DNA of 64,000 nucleotides, taken from sequence record MH791411.1. One strand, 5' to 3'. Made by a program: the position numbers and the translations under genes. Source of the stretch: Escherichia phage Ecwhy_1. Shown here piece after piece: positions 7,323 to 47,655 of the stretch. The notes under the pieces were generated by a model. The model was not told the origin of the DNA. It worked only from the letters and a program-made list of their open reading frames with translations, and ran no database searches. Position 1 is the first letter of the stretch; each line of letters opens with the position of its first letter.

Positions 7323-7736
7323 TTACATGTATACCTTTTTCAAATCCTTGGAACAACGGTCAAAAATTGTGTTGATGAATTCGACATCCTCTTTGATATT
7401 GGAGTCTATAGCATCATTCTCGTTTCTTGTTGTGTTCCTGTATTTGTGTTCAGGGTGATTGTATACCACCTTGACTACATTATTTAGGTCTACAAAAAAT
7501 GACGATTTTTGCGTATAGGAAGCCTGAAGCTTGATGAGTTTACCATCGTTTTGTAGATTAGTCTTGTGAATTAGTTCTTCAATACCATCTAAATGGCTAT
7601 AGCTATCCTGTTCTTTGACGAATGTAACAGTTACCAGTACTGACTTCTCATCTCCAAAGTCAGAGATATTTTTAACAGCACTGATGATTTCTAAGTTTGA
7701 AAAATCTAATTCTTTTAGCATTACAAATATTTCCAC
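7323..7736 (-). CDS. hypothetical protein
   Basis: Track ORF, 137 aa. Confidence 0.5.
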   Translation of the reverse strand: MEIFVMLKELDFSNLEIISAVKNISDFGDEKSVLVTVTFVKEQDSYSHLDGIEELIHKTNLQNDGKLIKLQASYTQKSSFFVDLNNVVKVVYNHPEHKYRNTTRNENDAIDSNIKEDVEFINTIFDRCSKDLKKVYM

Positions 7737-8077
7737 AAAGTTCGATAAGTGATAATTTCTTCTCTGGTAACAGAAACTTCATAGCACTTAACACCATCAG
7801 TTTCATTTCTGAATGGTTCTGCTGGTCTATCTTCTGTTAAACCTCGTTCATACGTACAATGATAATATTTGTTCGTGTTCATGTCAAGAAAAACTAGATC
7901 AAATTCTTCTGTCCATCGTCTATGCCCTTTACTTTCATTACTAATGATTTTGTACTTAACATCGGGATTGAATGATTCAGTACTGTCATCCCATGTACCA
8001 TAGTCAGTATATTCATCATCTTCATCTAACTCTGCCAGATGCCACATTAACTGCGGTAAAAAGATTTTAGATTTCAT
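7721..8077 (-). CDS. hypothetical protein
   Basis: Track ORF, 118 aa; same upstream hairpin/TTTTGGAGAAA arrangement as gene 5067..5684. Confidence 0.5.
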   Translation of the reverse strand: MKSKIFLPQLMWHLAELDEDDEYTDYGTWDDSTESFNPDVKYKIISNESKGHRRWTEEFDLVFLDMNTNKYYHCTYERGLTEDRPAEPFRNETDGVKCYEVSVTREEIITYRTLWKYL

Positions 8078-8088
8078 TTATTTTCTCC

Positions 8089-8121
8089 AAAAAAATAGGG
8101 ACTCGATTTCTCAAGTCCCTA
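8089..8121 (-). terminator. putative intrinsic terminator
   Basis: 8-bp stem TAGGGACT/AGTCCCTA followed on minus strand by T7 run; immediately downstream of HNH gene. Confidence 0.4.
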
Positions 8122-8131
8122 TCATAACATA

Positions 8132-8743
8132 TTAATTGTGATTATTCAATTTCTTTTGTTCTTTTTTTAGAGCTTTCATATGTCGTCCAAAATCACGAAC
8201 ATGCCATATATGGTCGGTTTCCCATAGTTCTGTACGTAAACGGCGTTCTTCCAATTCTTCTGGCGTAGGAATTTTAGATTTCTTCTTATCTTTATTGAAA
8301 AAATCATTCATATGTTCTTCCAGTAGATTTCTACCCTTAACTTTTTCCAGGAATTCATCTACTGATTCAGTTTTATTAGAACGAAGACTGTTACAACGTG
8401 AACACATGGTGTTGTAATTTGACTCTAAATCAGGTCCACCCTTAGATGCTAGTTGGTTATGATCTACTGTCATCAGTACTTCATATAGACCACAAACTGC
8501 ATAGACATTTAAGTGAGGTTTACCATATACCGGATCAGTGCTATGTGAACGCTCAATGCGAACTTCAGTGGCTTCAATACCACACGCAACGCATTTACGA
8601 TTCTTAACGAATGTAAGTACTTTTTGTGGGAAGTATCGGAAAGTAACACCGTTATATGTATAGCGTTTCATCTGTGTACTTCTTTGATTTAACTCATCAA
8701 GAAGTGATAGTTTGGCAACATAGTAGACCTGATATTTTGACAT
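8132..8743 (-). CDS. HNH endonuclease, possible homing endonuclease
   Basis: CVACG zinc-knuckle followed by TVDHNQLASKGGPDLESNYNTMCSRCNSLRSNK, matching the HNH pattern DH..GG....N...C..CN..K. Confidence 0.6.
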   Translation of the reverse strand: MSKYQVYYVAKLSLLDELNQRSTQMKRYTYNGVTFRYFPQKVLTFVKNRKCVACGIEATEVRIERSHSTDPVYGKPHLNVYAVCGLYEVLMTVDHNQLASKGGPDLESNYNTMCSRCNSLRSNKTESVDEFLEKVKGRNLLEEHMNDFFNKDKKKSKIPTPEELEERRLRTELWETDHIWHVRDFGRHMKALKKEQKKLNNHN

Positions 8744-8745
8744 TT

Positions 8746-9060
8746 TTAATCCTCGGATTTAATTTTAACCTTAACATCTTGATTTTGTAAATCACGAATA
8801 GTTTTAATTAATGCATCATGTTTTAGTGCACAGTCATTGTACATTGCATCCCATTTTACGAGTACTGCAAGAATTTCAGCACCATCATATCCTCTGAACC
8901 CGTTTTTATCGACCATGATTTTACTTGGTAGTGGTGTATTTTCGTCACAACGTTCAAGTAAGATTTCTTGTTCTACAATTGGCTTAGGTTGATACTTAAT
9001 TTCTTCAGCACAACCACTAATTAATAGAAAAGAAATTGCAAATACTAAAGCGTATTTCAT
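8746..9060 (-). CDS. lipoprotein, possible o-spanin
   Basis: Signal peptide with lipobox LISGC; 4-nt overlap with the upstream membrane/coiled-coil gene as in two-component spanins. Confidence 0.4.
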   Translation of the reverse strand: MKYALVFAISFLLISGCAEEIKYQPKPIVEQEILLERCDENTPLPSKIMVDKNGFRGYDGAEILAVLVKWDAMYNDCALKHDALIKTIRDLQNQDVKVKIKSED

Positions 9061-9431
9061 TTGAATTTATTCCTCGCTGCAAGGGAATTCTGTTTAAGTT
9101 CATTCAGAAGTTTAACGCCATCTTCATCTAGACATACGTTTTTGTAAACTTCTCTTTCTACTATAATAGGCACTTGTGTCTCAATAACTTTAGCATTATC
9201 TTGCATTATCTTTTTGGTTTCTATATAGTTTTTTGCATTTTCTTGCTGCATCTTAGCGAGTGCAGAATCAACTTTCTTTTCTATTTTTTGGTCAATACTT
9301 TCTTTATAACCAGTATAATAAGTATTTGCTGACCATCCACCGTAAACACAACCTGCCATTACTCCTACTACCAAAATTGGTTTCCAATATGGTATTAAAA
9401 CTTTTGAAACAATAATTTCTAGTACACTCAT
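9057..9431 (-). CDS. membrane-anchored coiled-coil protein, possible i-spanin
   Basis: N-terminal TM helix ILVVGVMAGCVYGGW then charged helical region; precedes lipoprotein gene. Confidence 0.4.
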   Translation of the reverse strand: MSVLEIIVSKVLIPYWKPILVVGVMAGCVYGGWSANTYYTGYKESIDQKIEKKVDSALAKMQQENAKNYIETKKIMQDNAKVIETQVPIIVEREVYKNVCLDEDGVKLLNELKQNSLAARNKFK

Positions 9432-9484
9432 AATAACATCTCCTATAGTTGGTAATATTATTTAGAGTGTACTATATTATATGT

Positions 9485-9940
9485 TTACAACATTTTTTGA
9501 ATATGATCTACGAGTTTATACAGTTTAGTGTTTTCATTCTCGTATTCCAAATCAACTTCAACTTTGAATTCTTCTTCAAGTTCCATGATCATTTCAATCC
9601 AGTCAAGCCAATCGAATTTAAATTTTTCCACGACTTCACATTTAGTAAGATGGAAGTTCATTGATACATCTTTTTCGGATGCATTTTTGTCGCGACTTGT
9701 AATGAATTTGACAATTGCTTTTTCAACGTCAGTTAATTCACGAGTGCGATATTCTGGTTCAAGATACCATTCGCCATTATTGATAGCTTCCAACGAAAGT
9801 CTAAGTTCATGCATTAGTTTATAACGATCAGTACTTTTATGGATGCGGTTAACTTCGCGATTCAGTACACGTAGTGCGTCTTTGATTTGTTCGTTTAGCA
9901 TAACAATCCTCTTATTTTTTACTGTACCATTGCATTTCAC
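9485..9940 (-). CDS. hypothetical protein with ACP-like C-terminal segment
   Basis: C-terminus DWLDWIEMIMELEEEFKVEVD resembles acyl-carrier helix II (DSLD.VELVMALEEEF) but the phosphopantetheine Ser is Trp. Confidence 0.45.
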   Translation of the reverse strand: MKCNGTVKNKRIVMLNEQIKDALRVLNREVNRIHKSTDRYKLMHELRLSLEAINNGEWYLEPEYRTRELTDVEKAIVKFITSRDKNASEKDVSMNFHLTKCEVVEKFKFDWLDWIEMIMELEEEFKVEVDLEYENENTKLYKLVDHIQKML

Positions 9941-11150
9941 GGATATCTAATAGTACCTTCGTAGCCAACTTTATGTTTGGTCGCTTCGGTAGATGGGTCT
10001 TATGATACGCCACATTTCGGATGTAGTCAACCTTTTCGTTGAAATAATCCATAACTTCTTGATACAACCACTTCCCGTTACGAATGTCCATCAACATAGC
10101 AGCATCCGGTCGGTGAACTTGGATGATACCAGTTTCAAGTGCTTCCTGTGCTGTATTCAGCAGCCTGACTGTATGCATTGCGTGTTTACAATCATAACCG
10201 TGGTGTGATTCAAGAATAGCACGTTTGGCATTACGATTCTGCTTCCATTTGTGATAACTCTTACGGTTCTCACTATTTTCTTTGTATTCTTTTTCATTGA
10301 ATTTTACAATGAGTTCAGGACGAACTTTCAATTCTTCTGTAGTACGTTCTTTGTTGAAGTAACGTAGTGAACCATCAGCATTCACTGTACTTTCATTCGG
10401 GTTGATAATTACCCCAAAGATGTTTTCACCGTAATGGATTAGTTCATATCCAGAATTGTAATTCAATAAATTGAAATCACGATCTAATACTTTATCAGTA
10501 CTATAATTATGTACTAAACGTACAAAATGATATTGTTTCAATGCTTGTGTTGAAACTAATTGTAATGAAGTATCACGCATGTATTTTTCAAAATCAATTT
10601 TTGTAGCATTGAATGGGTGAAGATTGGATTTATTCAAACGGTCAACCAAATACTGCGGAAATGTATCATACATCCATGAAAGTACTTCGTCAACTGGATG
10701 TTCTTCTAAAATTTCATTTAGTTTACGTTCAGCAATTCGTTCCTTATCGAGCCAGCCGTGGTGATTAGACATACGCTTAACCTGATTGTATGCATATCCA
10801 CTGTATGAGTGTGCAATCTTTGAACTCAATAATTGCTGATTGAATGAGCGTAGATAGTCATAGATTTCAGTACTTTCTACGATGTGTTCCGGTTTAACCC
10901 ATAGTGATTCAAGAATGTTTGGGTTAGCTTCAGTATACAGACTTAAGTACTGATTGATTTCATAAAATTTAGTATCTTCTTCAGAAGTATCTGAAACTTC
11001 CTTAACATTAAAAAAAGGAGTTAGGATATATTCTTTGTTTGCAAGGAAGATACCACGATAATCTGTATCACTTTCTGGTGTGCTTGTGCCATACGCCTGT
11101 GAACCAGCTAAGTGTTTCACAATAGTTTGTTCTAGAAAATTGTTTTTCAT
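9912..11150 (-). CDS. nucleotidyltransferase-fold protein (Pol-beta superfamily)
   Basis: N-terminal GSQAYGTSTPESDTDYRGIF fits GS-x(9-13)-D-x-D minimal nucleotidyltransferase signature; 412 aa; specific family not determinable by eye. Confidence 0.5.
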   Translation of the reverse strand: MKNNFLEQTIVKHLAGSQAYGTSTPESDTDYRGIFLANKEYILTPFFNVKEVSDTSEEDTKFYEINQYLSLYTEANPNILESLWVKPEHIVESTEIYDYLRSFNQQLLSSKIAHSYSGYAYNQVKRMSNHHGWLDKERIAERKLNEILEEHPVDEVLSWMYDTFPQYLVDRLNKSNLHPFNATKIDFEKYMRDTSLQLVSTQALKQYHFVRLVHNYSTDKVLDRDFNLLNYNSGYELIHYGENIFGVIINPNESTVNADGSLRYFNKERTTEELKVRPELIVKFNEKEYKENSENRKSYHKWKQNRNAKRAILESHHGYDCKHAMHTVRLLNTAQEALETGIIQVHRPDAAMLMDIRNGKWLYQEVMDYFNEKVDYIRNVAYHKTHLPKRPNIKLATKVLLDIREMQWYSKK

Positions 11151-11548
11151 AAGTAAATCGTTAACTCCTTTAGAAAACCATTATAGTATCGTTTAAAATC
11201 ATGATCCAGTACTTGATAGTCATTGTAACTAAATCCAAGATTGATGATGGTATCTTCTTGGAAGAATTTCTCTTCATTCATTACTTCGATGGGTTCGTAT
11301 TCTTTCCCACCTTTACATACTTTAGTAAAGAACATACCATCATTGTTAATTTCAACGTACATGAAATTATTTTCTGGATCTCGTGGACACACAATGTTTA
11401 GTGAACTTGTCCCATTGTTATTATATTCGTATGAAATAATATCAAAAGAATCGATGCCATAACATTTGGACTTTTCTTTGTCACCAAAGACTTTTCTATC
11501 TGTACTCATATTGCGTATAGTACTGTAGATATCATCGATTGTAGTCAT
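11147..11548 (-). CDS. hypothetical protein
   Basis: Track ORF, 133 aa. Confidence 0.45.
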   Translation of the reverse strand: MTTIDDIYSTIRNMSTDRKVFGDKEKSKCYGIDSFDIISYEYNNNGTSSLNIVCPRDPENNFMYVEINNDGMFFTKVCKGGKEYEPIEVMNEEKFFQEDTIINLGFSYNDYQVLDHDFKRYYNGFLKELTIYL

Positions 11549-11550
11549 AA

Positions 11551-12060
11551 TTAACCACCGTACTTTGACTTATATGTTTCTAAAGATAAAGAAATGCGAT
11601 TTTGCTTTTTAATTCTTTCATCAATATCCTTTGAATTCTTAACACTTCTGTATACATCAGCTAATAAATTATAATCTTCTTTATTTGAGCTATGTAATGC
11701 CCAACCTATATCTGTTTTGATTCGAACATATGCTTTATTTGATGTGAAATAAAAATTGAATCCGTTAGACCCATCAAAAATATCATAAGTATTTACCCAA
11801 TCTCCATAAGGAAAACTCATTGGTACTGACTCATAATCAATGGTGATATCCGATAAATTTTTAGAACAGTACTTTACAAAGTGGTAAACAATCGGATCAC
11901 ATTTTGATAATTCGTATTTGTATTCAATGATAGTTTTTCTATTAGTATCATTGATGGCATATTCTTTTATCAATGGACTTTTTTTGATGATAAGAGTCCA
12001 TAGAAACGATTCTAATCCAGTTTCATCAACTTTTTCTTTCTTTTTGAAAAATGAAATCAT
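11551..12060 (-). CDS. hypothetical protein, tandem paralog family member 3
   Basis: Shares ...TNRKTIIEYKYELSK... block with 12057..12578 and 12585..13151. Confidence 0.5.
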   Translation of the reverse strand: MISFFKKKEKVDETGLESFLWTLIIKKSPLIKEYAINDTNRKTIIEYKYELSKCDPIVYHFVKYCSKNLSDITIDYESVPMSFPYGDWVNTYDIFDGSNGFNFYFTSNKAYVRIKTDIGWALHSSNKEDYNLLADVYRSVKNSKDIDERIKKQNRISLSLETYKSKYGG

Positions 12061-12578
12061 TTATATAAACCCTTAATTTTCTGTCTATTATGTATATCAT
12101 TTTGCTGAATTTTCAAATTAGTAAGATTGTGTCTTACACCTTCAACGCCACGCATTATTTGTAACATAATTAGTGATTCGTCATATGTTAGAACATTGCT
12201 ATTATTATCGATATATACTTTCACTCCACTTTCAAGATAATCATTTTCTTTGGAGTTAAAGTTTCTAATAGCAAACTTAACGCCATTTGTTGCATCACTG
12301 AATACATATCGTTCCGCACCGTAGAATGTTTTTCCACGAAATAAACCGCCTTCTTCAAACTTCCAACGACTGGATTCATAATCATTAACGTAATCAATGA
12401 TTAATGGTAGCAAAGGGTGTTTGCTCAATTTATATTTTGCTTCTAACAGAACACGACGATCTTGATCTGTATTGATGATATCTTTAAGTGTGAAACTTTT
12501 TGATATAATTTTAAAGATAATTTCATGCCAAATTAAAGTACTGTTTTGTTTTCCAACTGGGCCAAAAAACATATTCAT
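12057..12578 (-). CDS. hypothetical protein, tandem paralog family member 2
   Basis: TDQDRRVLLEAKYKLSK ... SSRWKFEEGGLFRGKTFYG aligned to neighbours. Confidence 0.5.
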   Translation of the reverse strand: MNMFFGPVGKQNSTLIWHEIIFKIISKSFTLKDIINTDQDRRVLLEAKYKLSKHPLLPLIIDYVNDYESSRWKFEEGGLFRGKTFYGAERYVFSDATNGVKFAIRNFNSKENDYLESGVKVYIDNNSNVLTYDESLIMLQIMRGVEGVRHNLTNLKIQQNDIHNRQKIKGLYK

Positions 12579-12584
12579 TCCTCA

Positions 12585-13151
12585 TTAGTATAAATCAGTA
12601 ATGTCTTTGTATGCATTAATCTGTTTTTGTTGTAATGAAAGTTCATTGAGTTTAGTTACCATTTTATCTACACCAACACGTATATAGAAAATAATAAATG
12701 AATCTAACTTGCCTAGAGTAATTCTTGAACTGTAAGTTGAAAGTTTTCTTGCATAAACATAAATTTCTTCTTCACTTGGTAAACGTTTCTCAATCAGCAA
12801 GTTTTCCACACCATTCGGCTCATAATCAATCTCGAACTCTACGCCTATCACAGTATCTTGAATGATATCAGTATATGAACCACCGAAAAAAAACTCTCTT
12901 GGTTTGGTTCTCCAACGAGGACTAAATGGGTCAGATGCGTATTCTTTTACAAATTTGTAAAAGGACATTTTACTGAGCATATACTTCATCTCAATTAGTG
13001 CTTTGCGGTCATCATCAGTTTTAAACTCTGCTTTGAGCGATGGACTTTTACACAGTAACTTAACTAAATTGTTGTACATCTTTAATGTACGTTGGTCTTT
13101 CATTTCTTGGATTTTGTGACGCTTTGGTGGTGGTAGTAAAGATTTGACCAT
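12585..13151 (-). CDS. hypothetical protein, tandem paralog family member 1
   Basis: TDDDRKALIEMKYMLSK ... SPRWRTKPREFFFGGSYTD aligned to neighbours. Confidence 0.5.
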   Translation of the reverse strand: MVKSLLPPPKRHKIQEMKDQRTLKMYNNLVKLLCKSPSLKAEFKTDDDRKALIEMKYMLSKMSFYKFVKEYASDPFSPRWRTKPREFFFGGSYTDIIQDTVIGVEFEIDYEPNGVENLLIEKRLPSEEEIYVYARKLSTYSSRITLGKLDSFIIFYIRVGVDKMVTKLNELSLQQKQINAYKDITDLY

Positions 13152-13183
13152 AATTTCCTCCTGTATTTTCTAGCATTATACAC

Positions 13184-13214
13184 ATAAAAGAAAAGCCCGT
13201 CAATAGACGAGCTT
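13184..13214 (-). terminator. putative intrinsic terminator
   Basis: Imperfect 9-bp stem AAGCCCGTC/GACGAGCTT followed on minus strand by T-rich run, just after the tail-fibre gene stop. Confidence 0.35.
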
Positions 13215-13221
13215 AAAATTT

Positions 13222-15951
13222 TTAATGCCAACGTGTACCAGAGCTTGAAGGAACACCAGTACTTGCGGGGATAGCAGAACCACGCTTGGTCGTACTAGGT
13301 CTGTATGTCAAGAATCGGGTTACCTTTTCAGTATCAATTGACGTAATACTCGTACTTCCAGTAACAATATCACCAACATATACGTTTGTCAATGTCTCAT
13401 CAAGAAGAGTTGTACTGATAACGTATGCCGCTTTTCTTGTGTTACGGTTCATTTGAATGTAAAGATAAAAAGTACTGTTAGCTGGGTTAGTTTTAATAGT
13501 ACTTAATTCTATGGTTTGAATCGCCAATCTATCAAACATACCACCAAGGAATACCGGAACTTCACGGGTGAAGTACACAGTGAAACCTTCAGCAACATCT
13601 TGTGAAACTACTACGATTTTATCTTGTACAGTTCCTGAACCATCAATCAACCCATCCATCTGTGCTGATGTTGTCCCAAAGAGACTAAACACTGCTTTAG
13701 TTTGATAATCTGAATCTTGAAGATGATAGTATCCAAATCCAACACCTGGTATAACTCCGTGCTGGAATGCATTGCCATTATCTATGTAGCTGGATGACAT
13801 AAATCGGTTAGATGTAATCAAACCATTCACTGTTTTAGCAATCATCAATTTGAATTGAGCATTACCAGGTTGTGAAAACTGATGAACTGCATCAACACCA
13901 ATATAACCAAAACCAGAATACTTAGCAACAGTTAGACCAGTACAGCGTTTCATATAGGCTTCGGTTACAATACCTGTTACAGAATTAAGTGTTTCGTATC
14001 TAGAACTCACCATAGACGCAGAACTAATATTGGTTCCTGAAACCGTGACATCAACTTCAGAATATATTGCATAACCTTGGTTATTTCCTAAGTTATATGC
14101 AGAAACCACCGCAATAGATTTTGAGAAAGAACTATCTGGTACATAATATAAAGCAATTTTACCAGAAAATGCTCCTACTATTCCAATATTAGCAAGTATT
14201 TCTTGTTTTAATGTTTCCAGAACATTATCACCAATTGTATAAGAACCATCAAATTCTAAAGTATCTGGGTTAAACAAACCACCACTTGTTTTGTATACAC
14301 CTTCAATGAATGATGTCCCATAACATTTAACTGAACCGTCAGTATCAATTAGTGAAATCATACCTGTATATTTGAAATCATCACCAAGACGAGTTCGGTT
14401 AGCTTGTGGTGCAAAACCATTAAGTGTTGTATTGTTTTGTACTGAATTGAACTGGAAGGTTGGATCAGTACCAATTTCAGAAAATACTGTATTGTTATAA
14501 CCATATGACTCATCTTCATATGTTCCAGAACATGCTAACAGTACTTTACGTTTATCAATAAAACGTGTTCCTAAAAGGTTTTCACCTACTGCACTACCAT
14601 ATGTTGGGGCAACGTTTACAAATTTAGAATTGTTCGCTTTGCGAGTACTGGCAACCCAACTATCATATGGTGTTCCTGTTACGTTATAAACCTGAATACC
14701 ATAGGTTTCAGAAGAACTCCAACGAGCACGTGTGCTGAATACTAAACCGTCATAGGTTTGGCATATAGAACCAACGTTACCTAATTGTGGAACACCTAAC
14801 TGTGTACCCATGAAGTTATTCATCTCAATGGCAAATGGGTTTGTTAGTGTGAATCCATCAACATCATTATATTCCGCTGCTATTGGTGCTCTACTACTTC
14901 CATCAATTGATAATGATTTAGAGTTGATAGTATAAACAAAACTAAAACCACTAGCATAAACAGTACTAATATATAGATTTGATACTAAACGGTTAGTTGG
15001 GAATAATGTAATTCTAATCTTTGATAAATCTGGACTTACGTTTGCTTGTATATTATAATCTGTATAATCTGAATATTCAACTCGTGTAACTGGTGAAGTG
15101 CATTCAAATAATGAATCACTACTAGTTCCAACTGAATATAATCTTTCATAAATTTTCAAATTATTAGCACTTGTGTAGTTAACACTTCTTAAGGTTTGAC
15201 CAGAAAAACCAGTAACCTTAGCAAAAGTACTCATAGTACCATCTTTAATACTACTTGTATTAACAGTATATAATGTTAAAGCCAAACCATAGTTTGCTAT
15301 AGTAGTGTCTTTGCACCACACAAATACTTTATCATTAACGATATGTGCATACAATGGTTTATCTGTACCAAATGATGTAGCAGCGATAGAAGCGTGAATA
15401 TGTGCAACTTCGTTAAATGTACCATTTGTTAAAGTGAAAATATAATTACTTGCACTAGATAGGCTAACTAGTAATTCATAACCATTCGTTCCGATGAACT
15501 GTTTAACATTTTCAGTACTTGGAAGAATTCTAGGATGATATTTTGATGTAGTACTGATAACACTACTTTGTGTTAGTGCATCAATATTACGCAAATCACG
15601 AATGAATGCATAGTAATATCCTTCAGTACTACCATTTGTACCAGCACGTAATACCACACCAGTACCATCATCTTCGACTATTGTTGGTTGCATACGGTAT
15701 ACATCTGAAAGCGACGTTGCCCCTTCGTATGAACCATTAACGTTTAATGGTAGATAATCCATTTCCCCTATACGGGAGATTGGTAACATATCAAGTATTT
15801 TTTGAACTTCTGATCTTTTATAAATTGGATAGTCAACAATACCTGTATTTGCGTCTGGTGCTGTACCATTAAAAGTACGCATAGCGTACTTTCCACCAAT
15901 TGCCAAATTTCCAAGTATAGCAGCACTACCAATGATGCGTTTGGATGACAT
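13222..15951 (-). CDS. tail fibre / receptor-binding protein
   Basis: 909 aa, Ser/Thr/Gly/Asn/Tyr-rich fibre-like composition; shares N-terminal LPIS..G..YLP block and C-terminal ~130-aa block ending YRPSTTKRGSAIPASTGVPSSSGT with two adjacent genes. Confidence 0.55.
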   Translation of the reverse strand: MSSKRIIGSAAILGNLAIGGKYAMRTFNGTAPDANTGIVDYPIYKRSEVQKILDMLPISRIGEMDYLPLNVNGSYEGATSLSDVYRMQPTIVEDDGTGVVLRAGTNGSTEGYYYAFIRDLRNIDALTQSSVISTTSKYHPRILPSTENVKQFIGTNGYELLVSLSSASNYIFTLTNGTFNEVAHIHASIAATSFGTDKPLYAHIVNDKVFVWCKDTTIANYGLALTLYTVNTSSIKDGTMSTFAKVTGFSGQTLRSVNYTSANNLKIYERLYSVGTSSDSLFECTSPVTRVEYSDYTDYNIQANVSPDLSKIRITLFPTNRLVSNLYISTVYASGFSFVYTINSKSLSIDGSSRAPIAAEYNDVDGFTLTNPFAIEMNNFMGTQLGVPQLGNVGSICQTYDGLVFSTRARWSSSETYGIQVYNVTGTPYDSWVASTRKANNSKFVNVAPTYGSAVGENLLGTRFIDKRKVLLACSGTYEDESYGYNNTVFSEIGTDPTFQFNSVQNNTTLNGFAPQANRTRLGDDFKYTGMISLIDTDGSVKCYGTSFIEGVYKTSGGLFNPDTLEFDGSYTIGDNVLETLKQEILANIGIVGAFSGKIALYYVPDSSFSKSIAVVSAYNLGNNQGYAIYSEVDVTVSGTNISSASMVSSRYETLNSVTGIVTEAYMKRCTGLTVAKYSGFGYIGVDAVHQFSQPGNAQFKLMIAKTVNGLITSNRFMSSSYIDNGNAFQHGVIPGVGFGYYHLQDSDYQTKAVFSLFGTTSAQMDGLIDGSGTVQDKIVVVSQDVAEGFTVYFTREVPVFLGGMFDRLAIQTIELSTIKTNPANSTFYLYIQMNRNTRKAAYVISTTLLDETLTNVYVGDIVTGSTSITSIDTEKVTRFLTYRPSTTKRGSAIPASTGVPSSSGTRWH

Positions 15952-15967
15952 ATTCTTTTTCCTTTAA

Positions 15968-16555
15968 TTACCAGCCTAATGTACCAGTTTGTGTTGGATT
16001 TCCAGTACTGACTGGGAAAGATGAACCTTTTTGTGTTGTACTTGGTCTGTATGTATTGAATCGTGATACGCGTTCAATGTTGATAGCAGTAATACCAGAA
16101 GTTCCAACGGTAATAGTCCCGATGAACATTATAATCTGTGATTCTTGTAATTGTGAAGTTGAGATTCTATAAATTGGCTCTCCCAGTACTAAAGTAGCGT
16201 ATACATATTGTGTTTGTGTGCCTGATGCCACTGTTGGTGCTGTCACTGCAACAACAGGGTAATTATAAAGATAGCCACCGATGAATGCAGGTATCTCTCG
16301 GTTAAAACGTAATGAATAACCGCTTGATGTAATTGACAAACTAGATACATCATAAAGTTCACCATATTGTGATAATGGTAAACCGTTAACAATAGAATCA
16401 ACTTCATCTTTTGTTAAGAGGGGGAATGTACATTCCCCATTTGCGTCTGTTCGATACGATACGTCATTAATATCACTAATAGATAGTCCAGTGTTTTTAT
16501 TCTGGACTACGATTTGTGACATAGCTTCGATATCGGATCTTATAATATATGCCAT
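15968..16555 (-). CDS. short tail-fibre-like protein
   Basis: 195 aa; carries only the shared N-terminal (LPLSQYGELYDV) and C-terminal (RFNTYRPSTTQKGSSFPVSTGNPTQTGT) blocks of the flanking fibre genes. Confidence 0.5.
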   Translation of the reverse strand: MAYIIRSDIEAMSQIVVQNKNTGLSISDINDVSYRTDANGECTFPLLTKDEVDSIVNGLPLSQYGELYDVSSLSITSSGYSLRFNREIPAFIGGYLYNYPVVAVTAPTVASGTQTQYVYATLVLGEPIYRISTSQLQESQIIMFIGTITVGTSGITAINIERVSRFNTYRPSTTQKGSSFPVSTGNPTQTGTLGW

Positions 16556-16567
16556 AAGATTAATCCT

Positions 16568-19264
16568 TTACCAATTGATTGTTCCTGTTTGTGACGGTAG
16601 ACCATAACTAACTGGGAATGAAGAACCAGCAGCTTCAAGAGACGCACCGAAAATATCCAATCTTGAACGTTTTTGTATGTTAACATTTGATATTTGTAGT
16701 GAGTTTGTTTGTATAGTACCTATCCAGAAAATATTATATGCTGTAGAACCAGTTTCTGAAATAACATCAGTTGTTATTACATATTTTGCATTACCTTGTT
16801 CCATTTTAACATATACATGAAATAATGTGTTTGCTGGATTAGCCTTAACTGTAGTTAAGTTTATACTAGTAATCGGTAATGTAAATGCTTTACCAGAAAG
16901 AATTACTGGAGTTTCTTCTGTGAAGTACACAATAAAACCTTGAGCAACGTCTTGTGAAACTACGTTAATCGGTGCACCTTGAGCAGTCCAGTTATTATAA
17001 TCAGCAATTGTAGTACCACATTTTTGGAAAGTCATTTTGTTTACATAGTCTATTGCTTGGAAATAACCAAAACCAATACCAGGTAAAGCTGCTGGTTGAA
17101 TACCTTGCTCATAACTTGCATGTGAACCACTGATAATAAAACTATCAAATTGTGCAGTTGCTTTTGTTACATATGCTCTGAATTGGTGTGTGTTTGTATT
17201 ACCAATAGTTGGGTGAGATAATGGGTCAGAACCACCTATGAAGTAGAAAGAACCACCATCATATATTGTTAAACCAACAGAAGACGAAGCAAAACTACCA
17301 TTACCATTTGGTGTAAAGTTACTTCCGTAAACGTTTTCTAGTACTAAACGCTTGAAGGTAATTGTAGTGATATTACCTGAACGTGTATTCACATTCACTT
17401 CAGCAATTCTAATATAGTTCTGATATGTATTTGTAACTGTACTTAGCATTACGAATGCAGGTATATCAGTTTGTTGTGGAACAAACAATGTCATATCTTT
17501 ATAAGCAGCGGAAGATAAGTTCCAGTCGCTTAGTACTTTGGCGTATTCAGCATTTCTGAAATTATCAAGTACAGATTGAGTAACACTAATGATACCAGTT
17601 CCGTTCATATTTTTATCATATGATAGTGATTGGGAATATCTCTGACCTACCATGAATATCCCACCATTTGTAGTAACATTATTACCACTAATGGAACTAA
17701 TAAAAACTCTGTTGTTCGTGTTATCTGTCACATTAGCACGTTCTGTTGTTGGCTCATAACCTTGTATGGTTCCACGTGATAAAGAATTAAACGTAAAGTT
17801 AGGAGTACTTTTATGAACTGCATAAGATGGACGGAATGCACCAGAACCAGTTGAACGAGAATACTGTTTAGTACTGTTCCCTGGAAGCAATTCTACGCCG
17901 TTAATAAAAGAACCAACTGCTGAACCAAATGAAGGACGAACTATGCCATTTCTGAAATCAGTTGAAATGTTCGCACGTACATTAATCATGCTATATATTG
18001 ATTGTGCAGTAAATTTAGCTTTCTGCATAAGCAATGGTTCTGCTAAGTTTGGACATGCAGTACAGAATACTTCACCTGTATTCAGATAATAATATGAACT
18101 GTAAATGTTTCTTGCACCGCTATGGTCATATAAAGGATCTTTGTTGAGAACGTTACCAGTAGCAACCAATGCCGAACCTGTGTTTGTAACAACAAATGGT
18201 GCAGCAAATGTACCAATATCGTTCCCATTATCCAAGTTACATTGTTTAGTACTCATGTTAAAATTGAAACTATAACTATGCTGTGGTCGGGTATTGTAGT
18301 TTGCCATAGTGAACCATGCGTCACCATTCATTCTGAATCGGAAGTTCTGCGTTCCTGGCTCCTGAGCAACATATAAATCGATAGATGTCATATAAATCCC
18401 CATACCAGCCAAATTTTGTGGTACATAGACATATGGCTTATCAGCAATATTAGTTGAGTTAACATGGTCAGTAATGATTATATTATTCTGAGCAGTATAT
18501 GTAGTATTGTAAAAAGTTTTTGTTGTCCATCCCGTGATTCGGGTAGCAGTATAAGTACCGTTTGCAATATTCAATACAACACGAACAACAACAATCTGTA
18601 GTTTGTTATTTTCATTAAGGACGTTGAATACATAAACTGAACCGTCTTCTGCCATCATAGCATACTCAATCCCACCTTCAGGTGAAATATCAGCTTGGTT
18701 CACAAAAAGACCACTATGTTGTGTATCATCCAATGTACCATTCGTTACTGATATAAACAACCCATTAGTATTGGTAGATGTGTCATTGTAACGACCTAAT
18801 AGTATTTTTGAATCAGTATTGTATAAACCAATAGCAACACGGTTTGCCCCAAAATAGCCAGGCTTATACTGACGGCTTGTATTAACAGTACGGCTCATAT
18901 CGGTAACGGATAATGCGTTCGCTAGGTAAGAATAAAATAAACCTTCAACACTACCGTTTGTACCACTACGTAATAGTACTAATGTGCCATCGTTTTCTAA
19001 AAGTATTTTGTTTCTACGTTGGGATTGGTTTTCTGATGCACCATTAAAATCACCAGATACCCCAGCAGGTAGATAGTTATGTGTACCATAATGCGAGATT
19101 GGAAGTAAACTAATTACATCAAGTAATTCTTCTTTGGAATATGTATCAATTTCCATATTACCATTAGCATCAAATACTTGATCATTGATGCCCTGTACTG
19201 TTCTTTTCCCTTTAACTGTCACATTATGAGTGACGTCTAAGCCACCATATATTTTCTTTGACAT
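16568..19264 (-). CDS. tail fibre / receptor-binding protein
   Basis: 898 aa; fibre-like composition; N-terminal LPISHYGTHNYLP and C-terminal VYFTEETPVILSG...SSFPVSYGLPSQTGT blocks shared with 13222..15951. Confidence 0.55.
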   Translation of the reverse strand: MSKKIYGGLDVTHNVTVKGKRTVQGINDQVFDANGNMEIDTYSKEELLDVISLLPISHYGTHNYLPAGVSGDFNGASENQSQRRNKILLENDGTLVLLRSGTNGSVEGLFYSYLANALSVTDMSRTVNTSRQYKPGYFGANRVAIGLYNTDSKILLGRYNDTSTNTNGLFISVTNGTLDDTQHSGLFVNQADISPEGGIEYAMMAEDGSVYVFNVLNENNKLQIVVVRVVLNIANGTYTATRITGWTTKTFYNTTYTAQNNIIITDHVNSTNIADKPYVYVPQNLAGMGIYMTSIDLYVAQEPGTQNFRFRMNGDAWFTMANYNTRPQHSYSFNFNMSTKQCNLDNGNDIGTFAAPFVVTNTGSALVATGNVLNKDPLYDHSGARNIYSSYYYLNTGEVFCTACPNLAEPLLMQKAKFTAQSIYSMINVRANISTDFRNGIVRPSFGSAVGSFINGVELLPGNSTKQYSRSTGSGAFRPSYAVHKSTPNFTFNSLSRGTIQGYEPTTERANVTDNTNNRVFISSISGNNVTTNGGIFMVGQRYSQSLSYDKNMNGTGIISVTQSVLDNFRNAEYAKVLSDWNLSSAAYKDMTLFVPQQTDIPAFVMLSTVTNTYQNYIRIAEVNVNTRSGNITTITFKRLVLENVYGSNFTPNGNGSFASSSVGLTIYDGGSFYFIGGSDPLSHPTIGNTNTHQFRAYVTKATAQFDSFIISGSHASYEQGIQPAALPGIGFGYFQAIDYVNKMTFQKCGTTIADYNNWTAQGAPINVVSQDVAQGFIVYFTEETPVILSGKAFTLPITSINLTTVKANPANTLFHVYVKMEQGNAKYVITTDVISETGSTAYNIFWIGTIQTNSLQISNVNIQKRSRLDIFGASLEAAGSSFPVSYGLPSQTGTINW

Positions 19265-19311
19265 ACATATCCTTGTAATTTAGATATTAGTTACTGTATT
19301 TATGAATGTAA

Positions 19312-19339: not shown

Positions 19340-19810
19340 TTAAAAGTCTTTATTTTTATATAAAATTCGTTGGTTATTTGAACCACGAAATGGTAATGTT
19401 AAATTCTTTTCTTCTGAAACAAATTTACCATCAACTAATACATCTAAGTACTGAAGAATGTCTTTAGCATGATTATTCATAATCTCTTCTAAAGTATATC
19501 CACTCCAGCACCAAATAGTTTTATTGGGATAAGTCTCTTTTACAATCTTACATAGTTCTAAAATTGTTTCTATGTTCTTTTTCATTAGAGGATCTCCACC
19601 AAGGAGGGATAATCCACTAACGTAAGGCTTACTGAGTTCAGCTAAAATTATATCAATTGTATCAGTACTGAACTCTTGTCCACTTCTATAATCCCATGCT
19701 TCTTCATTGAAGCATCCGTCACACCCATGACTGCACCCACTAACAAAAAGGGAGCATCTTACTCCCTCCCCATTAATAAGGTCGTCTTTAATTATCGTCT
19801 GGTAATTCAT
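19340..19810 (-). CDS. nrdG: anaerobic ribonucleotide reductase activating protein (radical SAM)
   Basis: Cys cluster SGCSHGCDGCFNEEAW, 156 aa, immediately downstream of nrdD. Confidence 0.85.
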   Translation of the reverse strand: MNYQTIIKDDLINGEGVRCSLFVSGCSHGCDGCFNEEAWDYRSGQEFSTDTIDIILAELSKPYVSGLSLLGGDPLMKKNIETILELCKIVKETYPNKTIWCWSGYTLEEIMNNHAKDILQYLDVLVDGKFVSEEKNLTLPFRGSNNQRILYKNKDF

Positions 19811-20114
19811 CTAATATTGCACTCACTATCTCAACGAGAACATCACCATGACATGATTTCGGTTTACAGAAACAGCCAAGACGTTTCCCTGCTAACTCAA
19901 GTAAATCATCAATCTGAACTTCACCGTTAGAAATACGCTCAATAATGTATTCTCTGAACTTTTCGATTGATTCTTCCCTTGTAGCAACAATGAACTCGGC
20001 TTTGGTCTGTTTATCACTGATATGGGTAAATGGGTTGCCCCATTTAGACCCACGACCGATATACACATCATACGGTTCTTTATATTTGTTAACCACAATT
20101 GGCTTTAAATCCAT
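19788..20114 (-). CDS. conserved phage protein with GNPF motif (DUF4326-like)
   Basis: YIGRGSKWGNPF plus C-terminal GCFCKPKSCHGDVL cysteine/histidine cluster; family assignment from memory of the motif, unverified. Confidence 0.5.
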   Translation of the reverse strand: MDLKPIVVNKYKEPYDVYIGRGSKWGNPFTHISDKQTKAEFIVATREESIEKFREYIIERISNGEVQIDDLLELAGKRLGCFCKPKSCHGDVLVEIVSAILDELPDDN

Positions 20115-25146: not shown

Positions 25147-25391
25147 TGTGCATCCTTTGGAATAGTGTTAAGGCGTGTACGGTTTACAATCTTCCTGCAC
25201 ATGAGATTAAGATCTTGCCCATGACGCATCTCATGGCAAGCATACAATGTACCATCATAGTTAAGTTTAGTCAAATTCTGGCGAATGAACTCTGCATCAG
25301 CCTCCTGAACTTTAGGTGCACAGCCACAGAGAGTAATGGACACAAATATTGTTAATGTAATGAATATATTTTTCATGATATTTTTTCTCAT
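25143..25391 (-). CDS. putative lipoprotein
   Basis: Signal peptide ending ITLCGC (lipobox-like), 82 aa. Confidence 0.45.
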   Translation of the reverse strand: MRKNIMKNIFITLTIFVSITLCGCAPKVQEADAEFIRQNLTKLNYDGTLYACHEMRHGQDLNLMCRKIVNRTRLNTIPKDAQ

Positions 25392-26359
25392 TTTGGGCTA
25401 TAACCACTTTTAATTTTAGAAATTACTTTCTTCTCGAAGAACTTACGTGCTTCTTCAATAGTTTTGAATTCTTCACCATCTGTAGTACTGGTTTTACCAA
25501 TAGCACCATACTCAATAATTACTTCACACACTGGAGCATTCAATTCAATATTATAGAATTTGTTCGAAGAACCGTGAACATATTCCAAATGTACATTATC
25601 AGGAATGTTCTGCACATAATCATAGTTCTTGAAGATAATATCAATCATATTTTCTTCACCGCGATCAGGAAATAGTTCAGTATTATTCAGTACTAAACGC
25701 TGTGCAGCACGGAACATATCAAAATATTGTTCACCTTTTTTCAGTTCTTTTGTATCAGAACAGAAATGACCATAGTATTCTACATAATCATTCCAAGGAT
25801 AAATTCCTTCATCAGCAGTTTCAAAAGCGTAAGTTTCATCTTGTGGAACTTTAAAACCACGAGTTTTTGGATGAGAAATTAAGCACAGTGAAATATTATG
25901 ACCGATATCTGAATCATCAGTAATACTACCACCAACCATATGAACAACATTTTTAATACGTTCAAAATCTACATCTTCAATTTCATGATACATTAAATGT
26001 TCTTCAATATTACTTACTAGTAATGAATTACCATTTCCTGCATCGAATTCAAAAATGAAAAGTTCTACACAATCTTCTTCTTTCATTTCAATAGTATCAC
26101 TGAGTTTAATATACTCATTTTTTACTTGTTCAATATTTTCATGAGAACCAAAACTATAACGAGAACTGATATAACTACTACCATCCAACCATCCCATATC
26201 CCAAGGTTCTTCTGACATGTATTCGGTGCTATAGAAATCAGTCAAATCATCTCTCTGAGTACAAACCGTAAGAGAACGAACATTATTAAGACCTTGAACT
26301 TCAAGATTCAGTACTGTAGTGTTGCCGATTTTTTGTTCAGAAATAATTTTAGTTTTCAT
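25388..26359 (-). CDS. WGR-domain protein
   Basis: C-terminal ~60 aa KFYNIELNAPVCEVIIEYGAIGKT...KIKSGY fits the WGR fold pattern (W-G-R replaced by Y-G-A); N-terminal 260 aa unassigned. Confidence 0.45.
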   Translation of the reverse strand: MKTKIISEQKIGNTTVLNLEVQGLNNVRSLTVCTQRDDLTDFYSTEYMSEEPWDMGWLDGSSYISSRYSFGSHENIEQVKNEYIKLSDTIEMKEEDCVELFIFEFDAGNGNSLLVSNIEEHLMYHEIEDVDFERIKNVVHMVGGSITDDSDIGHNISLCLISHPKTRGFKVPQDETYAFETADEGIYPWNDYVEYYGHFCSDTKELKKGEQYFDMFRAAQRLVLNNTELFPDRGEENMIDIIFKNYDYVQNIPDNVHLEYVHGSSNKFYNIELNAPVCEVIIEYGAIGKTSTTDGEEFKTIEEARKFFEKKVISKIKSGYSPK

Positions 26360-28174: not shown

Positions 28175-28268
28175 GAAAAACTGAAATAACACATGGAGTT
28201 CTTTTTAAATTAATAAAAAGTATTATTATTCTTATGAAAGTATTTATCATGAACTCCAGTTTATTGCT

Positions 28269-28532: not shown

Positions 28533-29972
28533 TTACATATTTTCTTCAGCAAATTCTGCCAGTGGTGAACGAACGACACCTTCTAGTTCGATTACACGAC
28601 AACCGTCCCAGTTCTTGAACTTCTCGGTAACATAAGTTAGACCGCTGTTAACTGGACTAATGAATTTAGAGTCAATCTGGCTCAAGTTGCCCATAATAAC
28701 CACTTTACAGTTCATTCCTGCACGAGTCAGGATTGTTTTAGCCTGAGCAGGAGTAATGTTCTGGAATTCATCCACTACTAGGATAGTGTTTGTGAAAGAA
28801 CGCCCACGAACGAAGTTTAGTGCTTTGAACTGGATAACATTACGTTTCATGATTTCTTCGATACTGCCTTGTGGGTTAGCATCATCTTTGTGTAGGAATT
28901 CCAACGCATCAATGGCAGCTCCACAGAATGGAATCACCTTCTCTGCCTCAGAACCTGGCAAGAAACCAATGTCTTCGAATTGGGAATCTTGTGTTTTGGA
29001 GAAGATGATACGGTCGTATTTTTTCTTCTCTAGTACTAGCTCCAGTGCAGTAGCAATGGTGATCAATGTTTTACCAGTACCTGCGGAACCCAACAGTACT
29101 GTTAGATGAACATCAGGATCTAGGATACTGTTGATTGCTAGTGCTTGTTGAATATTCTTAGCCTTAATATCCCACACTTTAGCACGTAGAGCAACAGATT
29201 GTCCAATATCTTGGAATACAAGAATATCTTCTGGTGTTAAAGTACCATCATCTTCTTCAATTGCAGATTGGCCTTCGTACACAAATAGAACATCAGCATT
29301 ATCATATAGGTAATCACCGATGCAAATATTTTGTGGCATGATATGTTCAATCAAGCTTTTTGGAATGTAGTGATACAAACGGCGACCAACTTGTTCAGAT
29401 TGGATAGACACATCAGTTAGATTGCTATACACATCCCAAAAATCTAGGTCGAGGTGATGTTGACCAATGTGAATCAAATCACTATCACCAATCACGATAT
29501 CATGACGATAATCTTGAACTTCCACCCCGTAGCTTAGAGCCTTGATACGCATATTGATATCACGGGTAACCAGTACTGAATCAGTTGCTAATGCTACTAA
29601 AATGATTTTATCATCTGGTACTGTGCTTTTTAGAAGAGTTTGAACTTTCTCTTCGTTACCAGAAGTACGAATTAGTGCTTCAGCTTCTTCGCTTGTAATA
29701 ACAAACAATTTGCTTTCAGGACTCATATTAGTATGAACATCAGCAATATTAACACCAGTACTACTAATTTCTTCATGTGATGCATCAGAAAGGATAGCTT
29801 CAATGTTACGGATTGCAACACGAGCATCACGGGAAACATCCACATTACGACTTTTGATTGAATCCAATTCTTCAAGTACTGTGAACGGTAGAATGATAGC
29901 TGCTCCATCAAAAGCAATGGTAGCATTTGGATCAGATAGTAGTACGTTTGTGTCAATTGTATATTTTTTCAT
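28533..29972 (-). CDS. phoH: PhoH-like ATPase with N-terminal PIN domain
   Basis: N-terminal PIN-like MKKYTIDTNVLL...EELD; Walker A LLGSAGTGKTLITIA; 479 aa. Confidence 0.85.
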   Translation of the reverse strand: MKKYTIDTNVLLSDPNATIAFDGAAIILPFTVLEELDSIKSRNVDVSRDARVAIRNIEAILSDASHEEISSTGVNIADVHTNMSPESKLFVITSEEAEALIRTSGNEEKVQTLLKSTVPDDKIILVALATDSVLVTRDINMRIKALSYGVEVQDYRHDIVIGDSDLIHIGQHHLDLDFWDVYSNLTDVSIQSEQVGRRLYHYIPKSLIEHIMPQNICIGDYLYDNADVLFVYEGQSAIEEDDGTLTPEDILVFQDIGQSVALRAKVWDIKAKNIQQALAINSILDPDVHLTVLLGSAGTGKTLITIATALELVLEKKKYDRIIFSKTQDSQFEDIGFLPGSEAEKVIPFCGAAIDALEFLHKDDANPQGSIEEIMKRNVIQFKALNFVRGRSFTNTILVVDEFQNITPAQAKTILTRAGMNCKVVIMGNLSQIDSKFISPVNSGLTYVTEKFKNWDGCRVIELEGVVRSPLAEFAEENM

Positions 29973-33747: not shown

Positions 33748-33787
33748 TGGTTAACCCTCTTAGTTGATTGTTGATTACATAAATAAT

Positions 33788-46497: not shown

Positions 46498-46742
46498 TAC
46501 AATAATCCTCTCACATAAAACATTGATGAAAATAGATAATCTTCAGTACTAGAATTTAGTAGTTTATCAAAACTATATTTTTTATGCTTATTTTTATACA
46601 AAGACATTCTATAGAATCTTTCTATATTTTCTAAGTATTCATTTCGTAATAACATCTGTGTTGTTACATTCACTATAATGTACCTTAAAAGAAAAAGGGA
46701 CCAATATATGATCCCTTTTGTATTAGAAATTACCTTCAGCAA
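46497..46742 (-). CDS. hypothetical protein
   Basis: Track ORF, 81 aa. Confidence 0.4.
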   Translation of the reverse strand: MLKVISNTKGIIYWSLFLLRYIIVNVTTQMLLRNEYLENIERFYRMSLYKNKHKKYSFDKLLNSSTEDYLFSSMFYVRGLL

Positions 46743-47655
46743 CTTGCATTACTTTCAACCCAAGTAGCTTACGCCACATGAATACAACTTGTGATCTATC
46801 ATCATAAACCTTTTTAACATCGTAATGATCAACCACATTTTTCATGTACAGGTCGAATTTTACAACATCATCAGGACGTTTGTCATCGATGCCTCGCATA
46901 AACAACGCATCATAAGGAACACCCCAATTCTTAAGCCACTGTTCGGTATCAGCACGACACCCTTCAGTACGCCCACTCATGACGATAATCTTGCGTTTAT
47001 GAAAAACTGCTTCAGCGATAACAGATAAAATAACTTCTTCGTCTGGTGTATCCTGGAGTACAGTACTTTCATCGAACGGGTTACGTCCCCATTTATGAGC
47101 AAGAGTACCGTCGATATCAACGATAATAGCAGCTTCTCGTGAATTACCATAGTAACCAATGTGTAATGCCTTACTATAATAGTACGTATCTGCCATAGTG
47201 TCAATGATATTATCTTGTACTGAACGCTCACGCTGGAGGTTATATTTCTTACAAAGTTTTACGAACTCTTTAATCTTAAAGAATTCATGAACATCTGCAC
47301 CACGGTCTTCATTAGGTACAAAATCATCATAGAAGTTCTTTTCTTTGTAATCATAACCATTATCTATAGCCCATACTTTCCATAGATTACGGAAATGTTG
47401 TTTAAGGTTCGTATCGGATATGATGATGTTCCAACCATTCTCTGCTGCTGAATTTGCTGCACTGAACTGTAAATTAGTTACGTACTGCTCATTAGCATCG
47501 TTGAATTTGTAAGCATCATGTGACCCAGCCATAGATTCACGAATATCATCACGGTTGATGTTGATAGTCTTGGATTTGGCTTTTTTAATCTCTTGCACTG
47601 CCCATGTAGTTTTACCACACCCAGGCAATCCAACTGTTAGTGTGATAGTTGGCAT
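46723..47655 (-). CDS. pnk: polynucleotide 5'-kinase / 3'-phosphatase (T4 PseT-like)
   Basis: N-terminal P-loop TVGLPGCGKTTWA; HAD-type phosphatase motif AAIIVDIDGTLAH in C-terminal half; 310 aa. Confidence 0.85.
   Translation of the reverse strand: MPTITLTVGLPGCGKTTWAVQEIKKAKSKTININRDDIRESMAGSHDAYKFNDANEQYVTNLQFSAANSAAENGWNIIISDTNLKQHFRNLWKVWAIDNGYDYKEKNFYDDFVPNEDRGADVHEFFKIKEFVKLCKKYNLQRERSVQDNIIDTMADTYYYSKALHIGYYGNSREAAIIVDIDGTLAHKWGRNPFDESTVLQDTPDEEVILSVIAEAVFHKRKIIVMSGRTEGCRADTEQWLKNWGVPYDALFMRGIDDKRPDDVVKFDLYMKNVVDHYDVKKVYDDRSQVVFMWRKLLGLKVMQVAEGNF

Follow-up and report, generated by a model that had tools for sequence, protein, structure and literature searches.

The genes considered here have counterparts in several sequenced jumbo phages, where 121Q gp502-504, G17_00419-421, phAPEC6 gp319c-321c and CBB_150/153/155/156, all labelled "hypothetical", are the same proteins as, or direct orthologues of, three consecutive genes (hereafter paralogs A, B and C, or the triplet) of Escherichia phage Ecwhy_1. 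We analyzed them in a stretch of 64,000 nucleotides from this phage (MH791411.1), which is referred to as the window. The PHROG database splits the family in two (phrog_18641 and phrog_7868, both of unknown function), the publications on fEgEco12, phAPEC6, Sharanji, RaK2 and CBB do not mention the genes beyond "hypothetical", and the paralogy is missing from the table of paralogous genes in the CBB paper. The enzyme encoded downstream of the triplet belongs to the RlaP family, in which T4 NrdC.11 has been placed and whose members extend damaged RNA 3' ends by 1 or 2 nucleotides and contribute to restoring the function of repaired tRNA (PMC12776372). In jumbo phages, RlaP has been predicted to be a counter-defence RNA-repair enzyme (PMC7824862).

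A, B and C are diverged paralogs, and they stand between a group of fibre-like genes and two conserved genes, the second of which encodes the RlaP-type nucleotidyltransferase (NTase). The reading that we favour, while holding it tentatively and at somewhat less than even chances, is that the three genes form a non-structural, early, intracellular accessory cassette that heads the operon of the RNA-repair enzyme and acts in the conflict between phage and host; the cytoplasmic action, the conflict role and its target are what we infer from the evidence set out below. The genes are as follows.

12585..13151, minus strand: paralog A, 188 amino acids, AB-type; orthologue of 121Q gp502, G17_00421 and phAPEC6 gp321c
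12057..12578, minus strand: paralog B, 173 amino acids, or 171 from the ATG at 12572 (the GenBank start), AB-type
11551..12060, minus strand: paralog C, 169 amino acids, C-type subfamily

The minus strand carries every gene of the region. An initial annotation of the DNA had described three consecutive genes of these lengths, and the open reading frames indeed lie where it placed them; the homology on which it had staked its proposal is significant for all pairs in formal BLASTP comparisons (A versus B, 30% identity over 175 columns, E=8e-16; A versus C, E=2e-5; B versus C, E=1e-5). The core motif that it quoted is essentially right: the K-S, D..R and KY.LSK elements are nearly invariant. Paralog C departs from the motif, with N in place of T and I in place of L, and the RW element occurs in A and B and not in C. 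A is matched by phrog_18641 (9.6e-78), as is B, and C by phrog_7868 (2.2e-52), with significant cross-hits between the two. Furthermore, a hidden Markov model of the family, run over the 64-kb window, recovered exactly A, B and C (E from 7e-38, the value for A, to 5e-47). The 133-amino-acid neighbour of the triplet, D133, was considered as a fourth paralog and ruled out (hhalign probability 0.3%). At the nucleotide level, the segment 11000-13300 shares 100% identity with an Asteriusvirus, Escherichia phage fEgEco12 (PP777464.1), and 88 to 90% with the Asteriusvirus jumbo phages 121Q, PBECO4, G17 and phAPEC6.

An exhaustive profile search yielded 42 clusters among 1.84 billion protein representatives, with lengths of 139 to 198 amino acids save for two fragments and one spurious eukaryotic match; a word-indexed homologue search recovered close relatives only. 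The eukaryotic protein, P0031, carries CAP/SCP-type repeats and was rejected as a spurious motif similarity. The family was found only in RaK2-like jumbo phages, always at the same locus and in two to four copies. In particular, tblastn with B matched 39 phage records from Asteriusvirus and the Klebsiella Alcyoneusvirus group, and the profile search added divergent members in CBB, GAP32, Serratia BF, Erwinia Eneladusvirus, Yersinia fHe-Yen9-03/04 and Xanthomonas XbC2. Judged from these matches, the family spans the whole RaK2-like supergroup. All-against-all comparison separates two old subfamilies: the AB-type, with one copy in Klebsiella phages and duplicated in Asteriusvirus, and the C-type, with orthologues of C in JNE01, A4, Muenster and metagenomes. 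The Pfam scan of A, B and C returned no family at E<=0.1, the sole result of the Pfam, NCBIfam and PADLOC scans of A, B, C and D133 was a marginal PADLOC match to DUF2290 (E=0.004), and searches of PDB sequences with two family profiles and a D133 profile gave nothing significant.

The gap between the 909-amino-acid fibre gene and A measures 70 nucleotides and holds a terminator, a predicted promoter and a ribosome-binding site. These elements and the next terminator downstream are the following.

13193..13214, minus strand: intrinsic terminator ending the fibre operon, 9-bp hairpin, -13.5 kcal/mol, z=-6.1
13175..13203, minus strand: predicted sigma70-type promoter, TTGACG-17 nucleotides-TATAAT, matching the consensus at 11 of 12 positions
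13157..13162, minus strand: Shine-Dalgarno sequence AGGAGG, 5 nucleotides upstream of the ATG of A, read from the sequence
8094..8123, minus strand: next predicted terminator downstream, following the ACP-like gene, the spanins and the HNH gene

The terminator that the initial annotation had noticed after the fibre gene is thus a real hairpin (13214..13193), followed by UUUUCUUUU, and the -35 hexamer of the predicted promoter lies inside the loop and 3' arm of this same hairpin. The triplet promoter is the window's only exact intergenic match to TTGAC-N18-TATAAT. Where up to one mismatch is allowed, the window has 22 occurrences of the pattern (4.75 expected); of these, 21 are on the coding (minus) strand, and many fall within open reading frames. 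The composite of terminator and promoter is kept in G17, JNE01, A4, Muenster, CBB and the metagenomic lineages L007 and L010; in Klebsiella Muenster the promoter is kept and the terminator is separate, and CBB carries two tandem copies of the composite, which match the published RpoD-like early consensus of that phage with its A-rich upstream element. No CBB-type "middle" promoter (TGAAAC-N17-TATAAT) was found near the locus. Since no terminator is predicted between 13193 and 8123, the hairpin at 8123..8094 is a possible end of the transcription unit of the triplet.

The fibre genes carry signals of a different kind, listed here together with the operon that they precede.

13222..19264, minus strand: late fibre operon (898, 195 and 909 amino acids), context outside the triplet unit
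19297..19303, minus strand: ATAAATA, T4-late-like motif that follows closely on a terminator and precedes the first fibre gene by 33 nucleotides

Ahead of the fibre operon come a terminator and, after it, the T4-late-like CATAAATA, which recurs in the same arrangement in lineage L007. ATAAATA is rare, with 3 copies in 64 kb (19297-19303 and 28241-28247 on the minus strand, 33779-33785 on the plus strand) against 36 expected (standard deviation 5.6), and TATAAATA has 0 copies in the window against 10 expected. ATAAATA has the appearance of a promoter motif of the T4-late type, strongly avoided in other places; a late motif of similar class has been predicted for the structural genes of CBB and GAP32 (PMC5259590). 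Taken together, the terminator, the sigma70-type signal and the late-type signal suggest that a late fibre operon stops in the gap and that a host-sigma70-type operon starts there. The triplet, thus, appears to be transcribed separately from the fibres, and it is from the promoter class only that we infer its early timing.

These signals bear on the function that the initial annotation had put first, that of a chaperone or assembly factor specific to each fibre. On this account A, B and C would be tail-fibre chaperones or assembly factors, one per fibre, as would suit three paralogs that stand beside three fibre-like genes in the window and, like many chaperones, are absent from virions. In every lineage examined, moreover, the family follows directly on the fibre or receptor-binding-protein cluster. 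However, the whole region is syntenic, so that position alone does not discriminate, and in eight lineages the conserved terminator and the early-type promoter intervene, insulating the triplet, while the late-type ATAAATA stands upstream of the fibres and not of the triplet.

The remaining evidence on this proposal comes from the fibres themselves. The 898-, 195- and 909-amino-acid genes are fibre-like; their homologues in phAPEC6 and CBB were detected in virions by mass spectrometry, and the Klebsiella phages have annotated tail fibres at the same position. The three proteins share a C-terminal module of about 120 amino acids (phrog_26864), and the 195-amino-acid protein is essentially this module alone. 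The mass spectrometry of the phAPEC6 virion lists gp314c, gp315c and gp323c, gp316c-gp321c being absent, and that of the CBB virion detected CBB_148 and CBB_149 but not CBB_150, 153 and 155; no family member, D133 or NTase is found in either virion proteome.

The number of family copies is two in the Klebsiella phages, L007 and L016, three in Asteriusvirus and four in CBB, and it does not track the number of fibres: three paralogs occur with three or five fibre genes, two with at least four unrelated Klebsiella fibres, and four with three in CBB. A second fibre module (121Q gp507-509 / G17_00414-416) lies between the NTase and the ACP-like gene in G17, phAPEC6, JNE01 and A4 and is absent from the window and from UE-S1, yet the window still keeps all three paralogs. 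This second module is an insertion or deletion of a whole receptor-binding module (window ~9900-9940 versus 7421-10839 in lineage L001). Likewise, Klebsiella Muenster encodes at least four fibres without detectable similarity to those of the window, yet it has both subfamilies, with two paralogs. Divergence is also uncoupled, since the fibres are 65 to 77% identical to those of JNE01 where A, B and C are 28 to 35% identical, the corresponding values against G17 being 72 to 85% and 91 to 92%, and recombination has its boundary precisely at the junction of the fibre gene with A. Finally, there is no match to a Pfam chaperone family, and the PHROG matches are to families of unknown function only. 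Four independent lines, namely, the transcription signals, the copy number, the persistence with unrelated fibres and the uncoupled divergence, disfavour chaperones, and we consider this explanation clearly unlikely. The link with the fibres is, so far as the sequence comparisons reach, positional only. Because the cassette appears to be separately transcribed, non-virion, fast diverging and accompanied by an RNA-repair enzyme, its genes are more likely host-conflict factors than fibre helpers.

Downstream, the triplet continues into two further genes.

11147..11548, minus strand: D133, conserved 133-amino-acid protein, phrog_22376, co-operonic, its stop overlapping the start of the NTase
9912..11150, minus strand: RlaP-family Pol-beta NTase, 412 amino acids, downstream anchor of the operon

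The NTase matches PF10127 (RlaP) with E=4.5e-17, its 63 bits exceeding the Pfam gathering score of 23, and phmmer shows it to be a homologue of T4 NrdC.11 (2.9e-16). The frames of A, B, C, D133 and the NTase abut or overlap, with overlaps of 4 nucleotides at B/C (where the start of C overlaps the stop of B, ATGA) and at D133/NTase. The neighbourhood linkage to RNA repair extends beyond Ecwhy_1, in that the triplet family lies upstream of RlaP in every lineage: in CBB-type phages, the stretch that precedes RlaP holds four family members, interspersed with Thg1, DUF4326 and an N4-methyltransferase; in other lineages, DUF4326 stands among the paralogs; and in lineage L016 one family member directly precedes RlaP. 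In the window, DUF4326 is found at 19788-20114 (minus strand), between nrdD and nrdG; since it stands among the paralogs in more distant relatives, the gene has moved within the locus. Also encoded in the window are T4-type Pnkp, which combines a kinase with a HAD phosphatase (46723-47655, minus strand), and an Rnl1-like RNA ligase (48478-49620, minus strand); with the NTase, this T4-type tRNA-repair pair makes up a full heal, fill and seal set.

The same neighbours would suit another role for A, B and C, namely, RNA-repair accessory factors that attach to the damaged ends of tRNA or RNA, or to the repair enzymes, and serve RlaP (in relatives, Thg1 and DUF4326 as well) as subunits for substrate specificity or recruitment, and not as inhibitors of host proteins. 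We regard this as a close rival of a role in host conflict, though in itself rather unlikely. The operon shared with RlaP and its tightly packed frames, the gene-by-gene interleaving with Thg1, DUF4326 and RlaP in CBB-type phages, the position of the L016 member and the presence of the full T4-like tRNA-repair set with Pnkp and Rnl1 are all what such subunits would show, and so are the basic isoelectric point (pI) of the proteins and the conserved cluster of K, R, S and Y on their N-terminal helices. However, the NTase is conserved (70 to 87%) where A, B and C fall to 26 to 39% and are exchanged independently of D133 and the NTase, which is unusual for obligate subunits. Bacterial RlaP, moreover, works alone in vitro (PMC12776372), and no RNA-binding fold was recognised in the family, nor was any catalytic motif known from healing or sealing enzymes.

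Further genes of the locus may be recorded here. Downstream of the NTase, 8132-9940 (minus strand) holds the ACP-like gene (a weak TIGR00517 match) and then an overlapping i-spanin/o-spanin pair, with an N-terminal transmembrane domain and a lipobox, LISGC; an HNH endonuclease gene follows the spanins and precedes the strong terminator at 8123..8094. In relatives, a second, unrelated tandem array of paralogs lies directly downstream of RlaP (Muenster 240/241, L003 12073-12991; three genes of about 165 amino acids, L016 4121-5639; CBB_160/161, L013 18879-19802), which does not occur in the window. Elsewhere in the window, Pfam identified a PIN-PhoH fusion (28533-29972), an ATP-dependent DNA ligase (39033-40451) and a 323-amino-acid protein with a C-terminal WGR domain (25388-26359, minus strand).

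No other block of the locus diverges as much between Asteriusvirus species as the triplet does. Against JNE01 and A4, A, B and C are 28 to 39% identical, whereas D133 reaches 62 to 63%, the NTase 74 to 87% and the spanins 55 to 75%; D133 retains 52 to 63% identity to distant relatives. The comparison of the window with G17 or UE-S1 gives the opposite pattern, an island of 91 to 97% nucleotide identity (~11900-13150) between flanks of about 78%, with its upstream edge at the terminator and promoter, exactly between the fibre gene and A. Synonymous divergence (dS) follows the same mosaic, being 0.1 to 0.5 in A, B and C versus 1 to 2.4 or saturation in the flanks. This mosaic of identity and dS implies recombinational movement of the cassette, uncoupled from the fibres as well as from the NTase.

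In spite of this mobility, the triplet is under purifying selection. The ratio of nonsynonymous to synonymous divergence (dN/dS) is 0.12 to 0.29 for A, 0.18 to 0.21 for B and 0.07 to 0.12 for C, against 0.03 to 0.05 for the NTase, so that the genes are evidently functional, with A and B somewhat less constrained than the NTase. Among close orthologues of A and C, variable sites are modestly enriched in the beta region described below. Hypervariability and cassette exchange with function retained are characteristic of early anti-defence genes, and the suggestion of the initial annotation that these genes form a rapidly evolving host-interaction family agrees well with a divergent, exchangeable block kept under selection.

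As to the proteins, an AlphaFold2 model of B, built from a 40-sequence alignment, reached a predicted local distance difference test score (pLDDT) of 90.4 and a predicted template modelling score (pTM) of 0.81. In this model, residues 17-65 form four N-terminal helices, residues 72-123 a beta region of four strands, and residues 132-171 a C-terminal helix 40 residues long. The N-terminal four-helix module holds nearly all the invariant polar residues of the family (K27, S28, D38, R41, K48, Y49, S52 and K53), further conserved positions being L31 in the helical module, D95 and an invariant Tyr near the C terminus. The beta region varies in sequence and in length (49 to 87 residues across the family), and the C-terminal helix has a constant length of about 41 residues. 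Foldseek with the B model against BFVD retrieved uncharacterised jumbo-phage proteins only. The fold is thus predicted with confidence and, as modelled, has no known structural relative; its resemblance to the "head plus long helix" proteins XRCC4, PAXX and SAS-6 is a resemblance only, with scores below significance, and the family has, in addition, the N-terminal four-helix module.

A module of helix, short helix and helix at the N terminus, combined with the constant 40-residue C-terminal helix, would also be compatible with early regulators that bind DNA through helix-turn-helix-like N-terminal modules, dimerise via the long helix and tune phage or host transcription, and the early-type promoter and basic pI are in keeping with this. 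However, a core regulator is not expected to be the fastest-diverging, exchangeable part of its locus, and Pfam gave no helix-turn-helix family; this reading seems to us highly improbable, the least probable of those considered.

By computation, A, B and C are soluble and mildly basic proteins (pI 8.6 to 9.3) without a hydrophobic or transmembrane segment or a signal peptide (maximum 19-residue Kyte-Doolittle value 0.67 to 1.08; grand average of hydropathy about -0.5). The initial annotation had also mentioned superinfection exclusion, and the classical membrane type of it is unlikely because a membrane segment, which Imm/Sp-type proteins would be expected to have along with a signal peptide, is missing. 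A related view would take the genes either for such exclusion proteins or for dispensable, lineage-specific paralogs, the filler of a hyperplastic region with no specific role in the laboratory host. The restriction of the family to one phage supergroup, its lack of known domains and its varying copy number would be in line with such paralogs. Nevertheless, the genes are kept at one locus across the RaK2-like supergroup with dN/dS of 0.07 to 0.29, and we judge this view very unlikely.

For a cassette acting in the conflict with the host, the sequence of events could be as follows. An early-class, sigma70-type unit would begin inside the terminator of the late fibre operon, with A, B and C proximal to the promoter, and would continue into D133 and the RlaP/NrdC.11-type RNA 3'-end repair NTase. 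The three proteins would then be made before virion assembly and remain intracellular, where they may neutralise or engage variable host factors; plausible targets are RNA-targeting defences whose damage the co-transcribed repair enzyme would mend. In such a scheme the conserved helical module may supply a common activity or partner contact and the variable beta region the target specificity, and the cassette would be swapped by recombination between co-circulating phages.

Several observations weigh against this reading. The conserved position downstream of the receptor-binding-protein cluster is also expected of a fibre accessory gene, and assembly chaperones are likewise absent from virions. 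No similarity to known defence or anti-defence families was found apart from the one marginal PADLOC match (E=0.004), and gene-wide positive selection is not seen among close relatives. The Pnkp and Rnl1 repair genes lie about 35 kb from the triplet operon, and the conserved polar cluster could be read just as well as the mark of an enzyme or of a site that binds nucleic acids. Moreover, "early" rests on consensus motifs, promoter-like matches being common in this AT-rich DNA (56 versus 62 expected in a generic scan), and read-through of the terminator could still yield late expression.

A more specific version of the conflict reading, which we put forward as speculative and unlikely in its entirety, would have modular early proteins of a new fold form an "inhibit-and-repair" counter-defence island with RlaP, Thg1 and DUF4326, conserved across RaK2-like jumbo phages. 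The variable beta face of each paralog would block a different RNA-targeting defence nuclease of the host or capture a different damaged tRNA, and the cassette would be shuffled at the bifunctional terminator/promoter hotspot.

The locus has some bearing on annotation practice, since proximity to fibres is often used to assign "fibre accessory" labels, and in the present case both the transcription signals and the comparative pattern speak against such a label. The terminator with its embedded promoter is, furthermore, a clear case of late and early-type operons packed back to back. We suggest that the family offers good candidates for study, being conserved yet fast diverging, with a confidently predicted fold and no structural relative. 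It is also linked to the RlaP/Thg1/DUF4326 RNA-repair locus, a poorly understood part of the genomes of RaK2-like jumbo phages, and these phages are being considered for therapy. A counter-defence role, if true, would help explain the host range of these phages and provide handles on RNA-targeting defences.

Among known systems, three invite comparison. The fibre chaperones (T4 gp38/gp57A, Tfa of Mu, P2 and lambda, and Pfam Caudo_TAP) are, like the triplet, small, non-virion and encoded directly downstream of fibres; different from them, the triplet has no sequence match to these proteins, lies behind a terminator and a promoter, does not co-vary with the fibres and is kept with unrelated ones. 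The plastic nrdC-tk region of T4 offers a positional analogy, in that nrdC.1-nrdC.10 are likewise small, pre-replicative open reading frames of unknown function beside an RlaP-type NTase, and T4-like neighbours surround the triplet here (nrdD/nrdG, the RlaP NTase, HNH, an rI.-1-like gene, tk and lysozyme, at ~600-22000). However, the direction of transcription relative to gene order is reversed with respect to the T4 nrdD-nrdC-tk-e region, the small frames of T4 are downstream of the NTase and those here upstream, the T4 fibre genes are not in that region, and no sequence similarity was found between the T4 nrdC-region frames and either the family or D133.

The third likeness is to the early anti-defence and host-takeover cassettes of virulent phages, for example, those of the T-even hyperplastic regions and of anti-defence islands, with which the triplet shares small soluble proteins, a predicted early-type promoter, extreme divergence, recombinational exchange between conserved flanks and the adjacency of a counter-defence enzyme. 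Different from those cassettes, the triplet has no homology to a characterised anti-defence protein, and its position and copies are unusually stable across the supergroup. Already deposited as hypothetical, the genes belong with the hypervariable early accessory genes that large virulent phages are known to carry. What they add to these is a fold that appears to be new and the conserved association with the RlaP locus.

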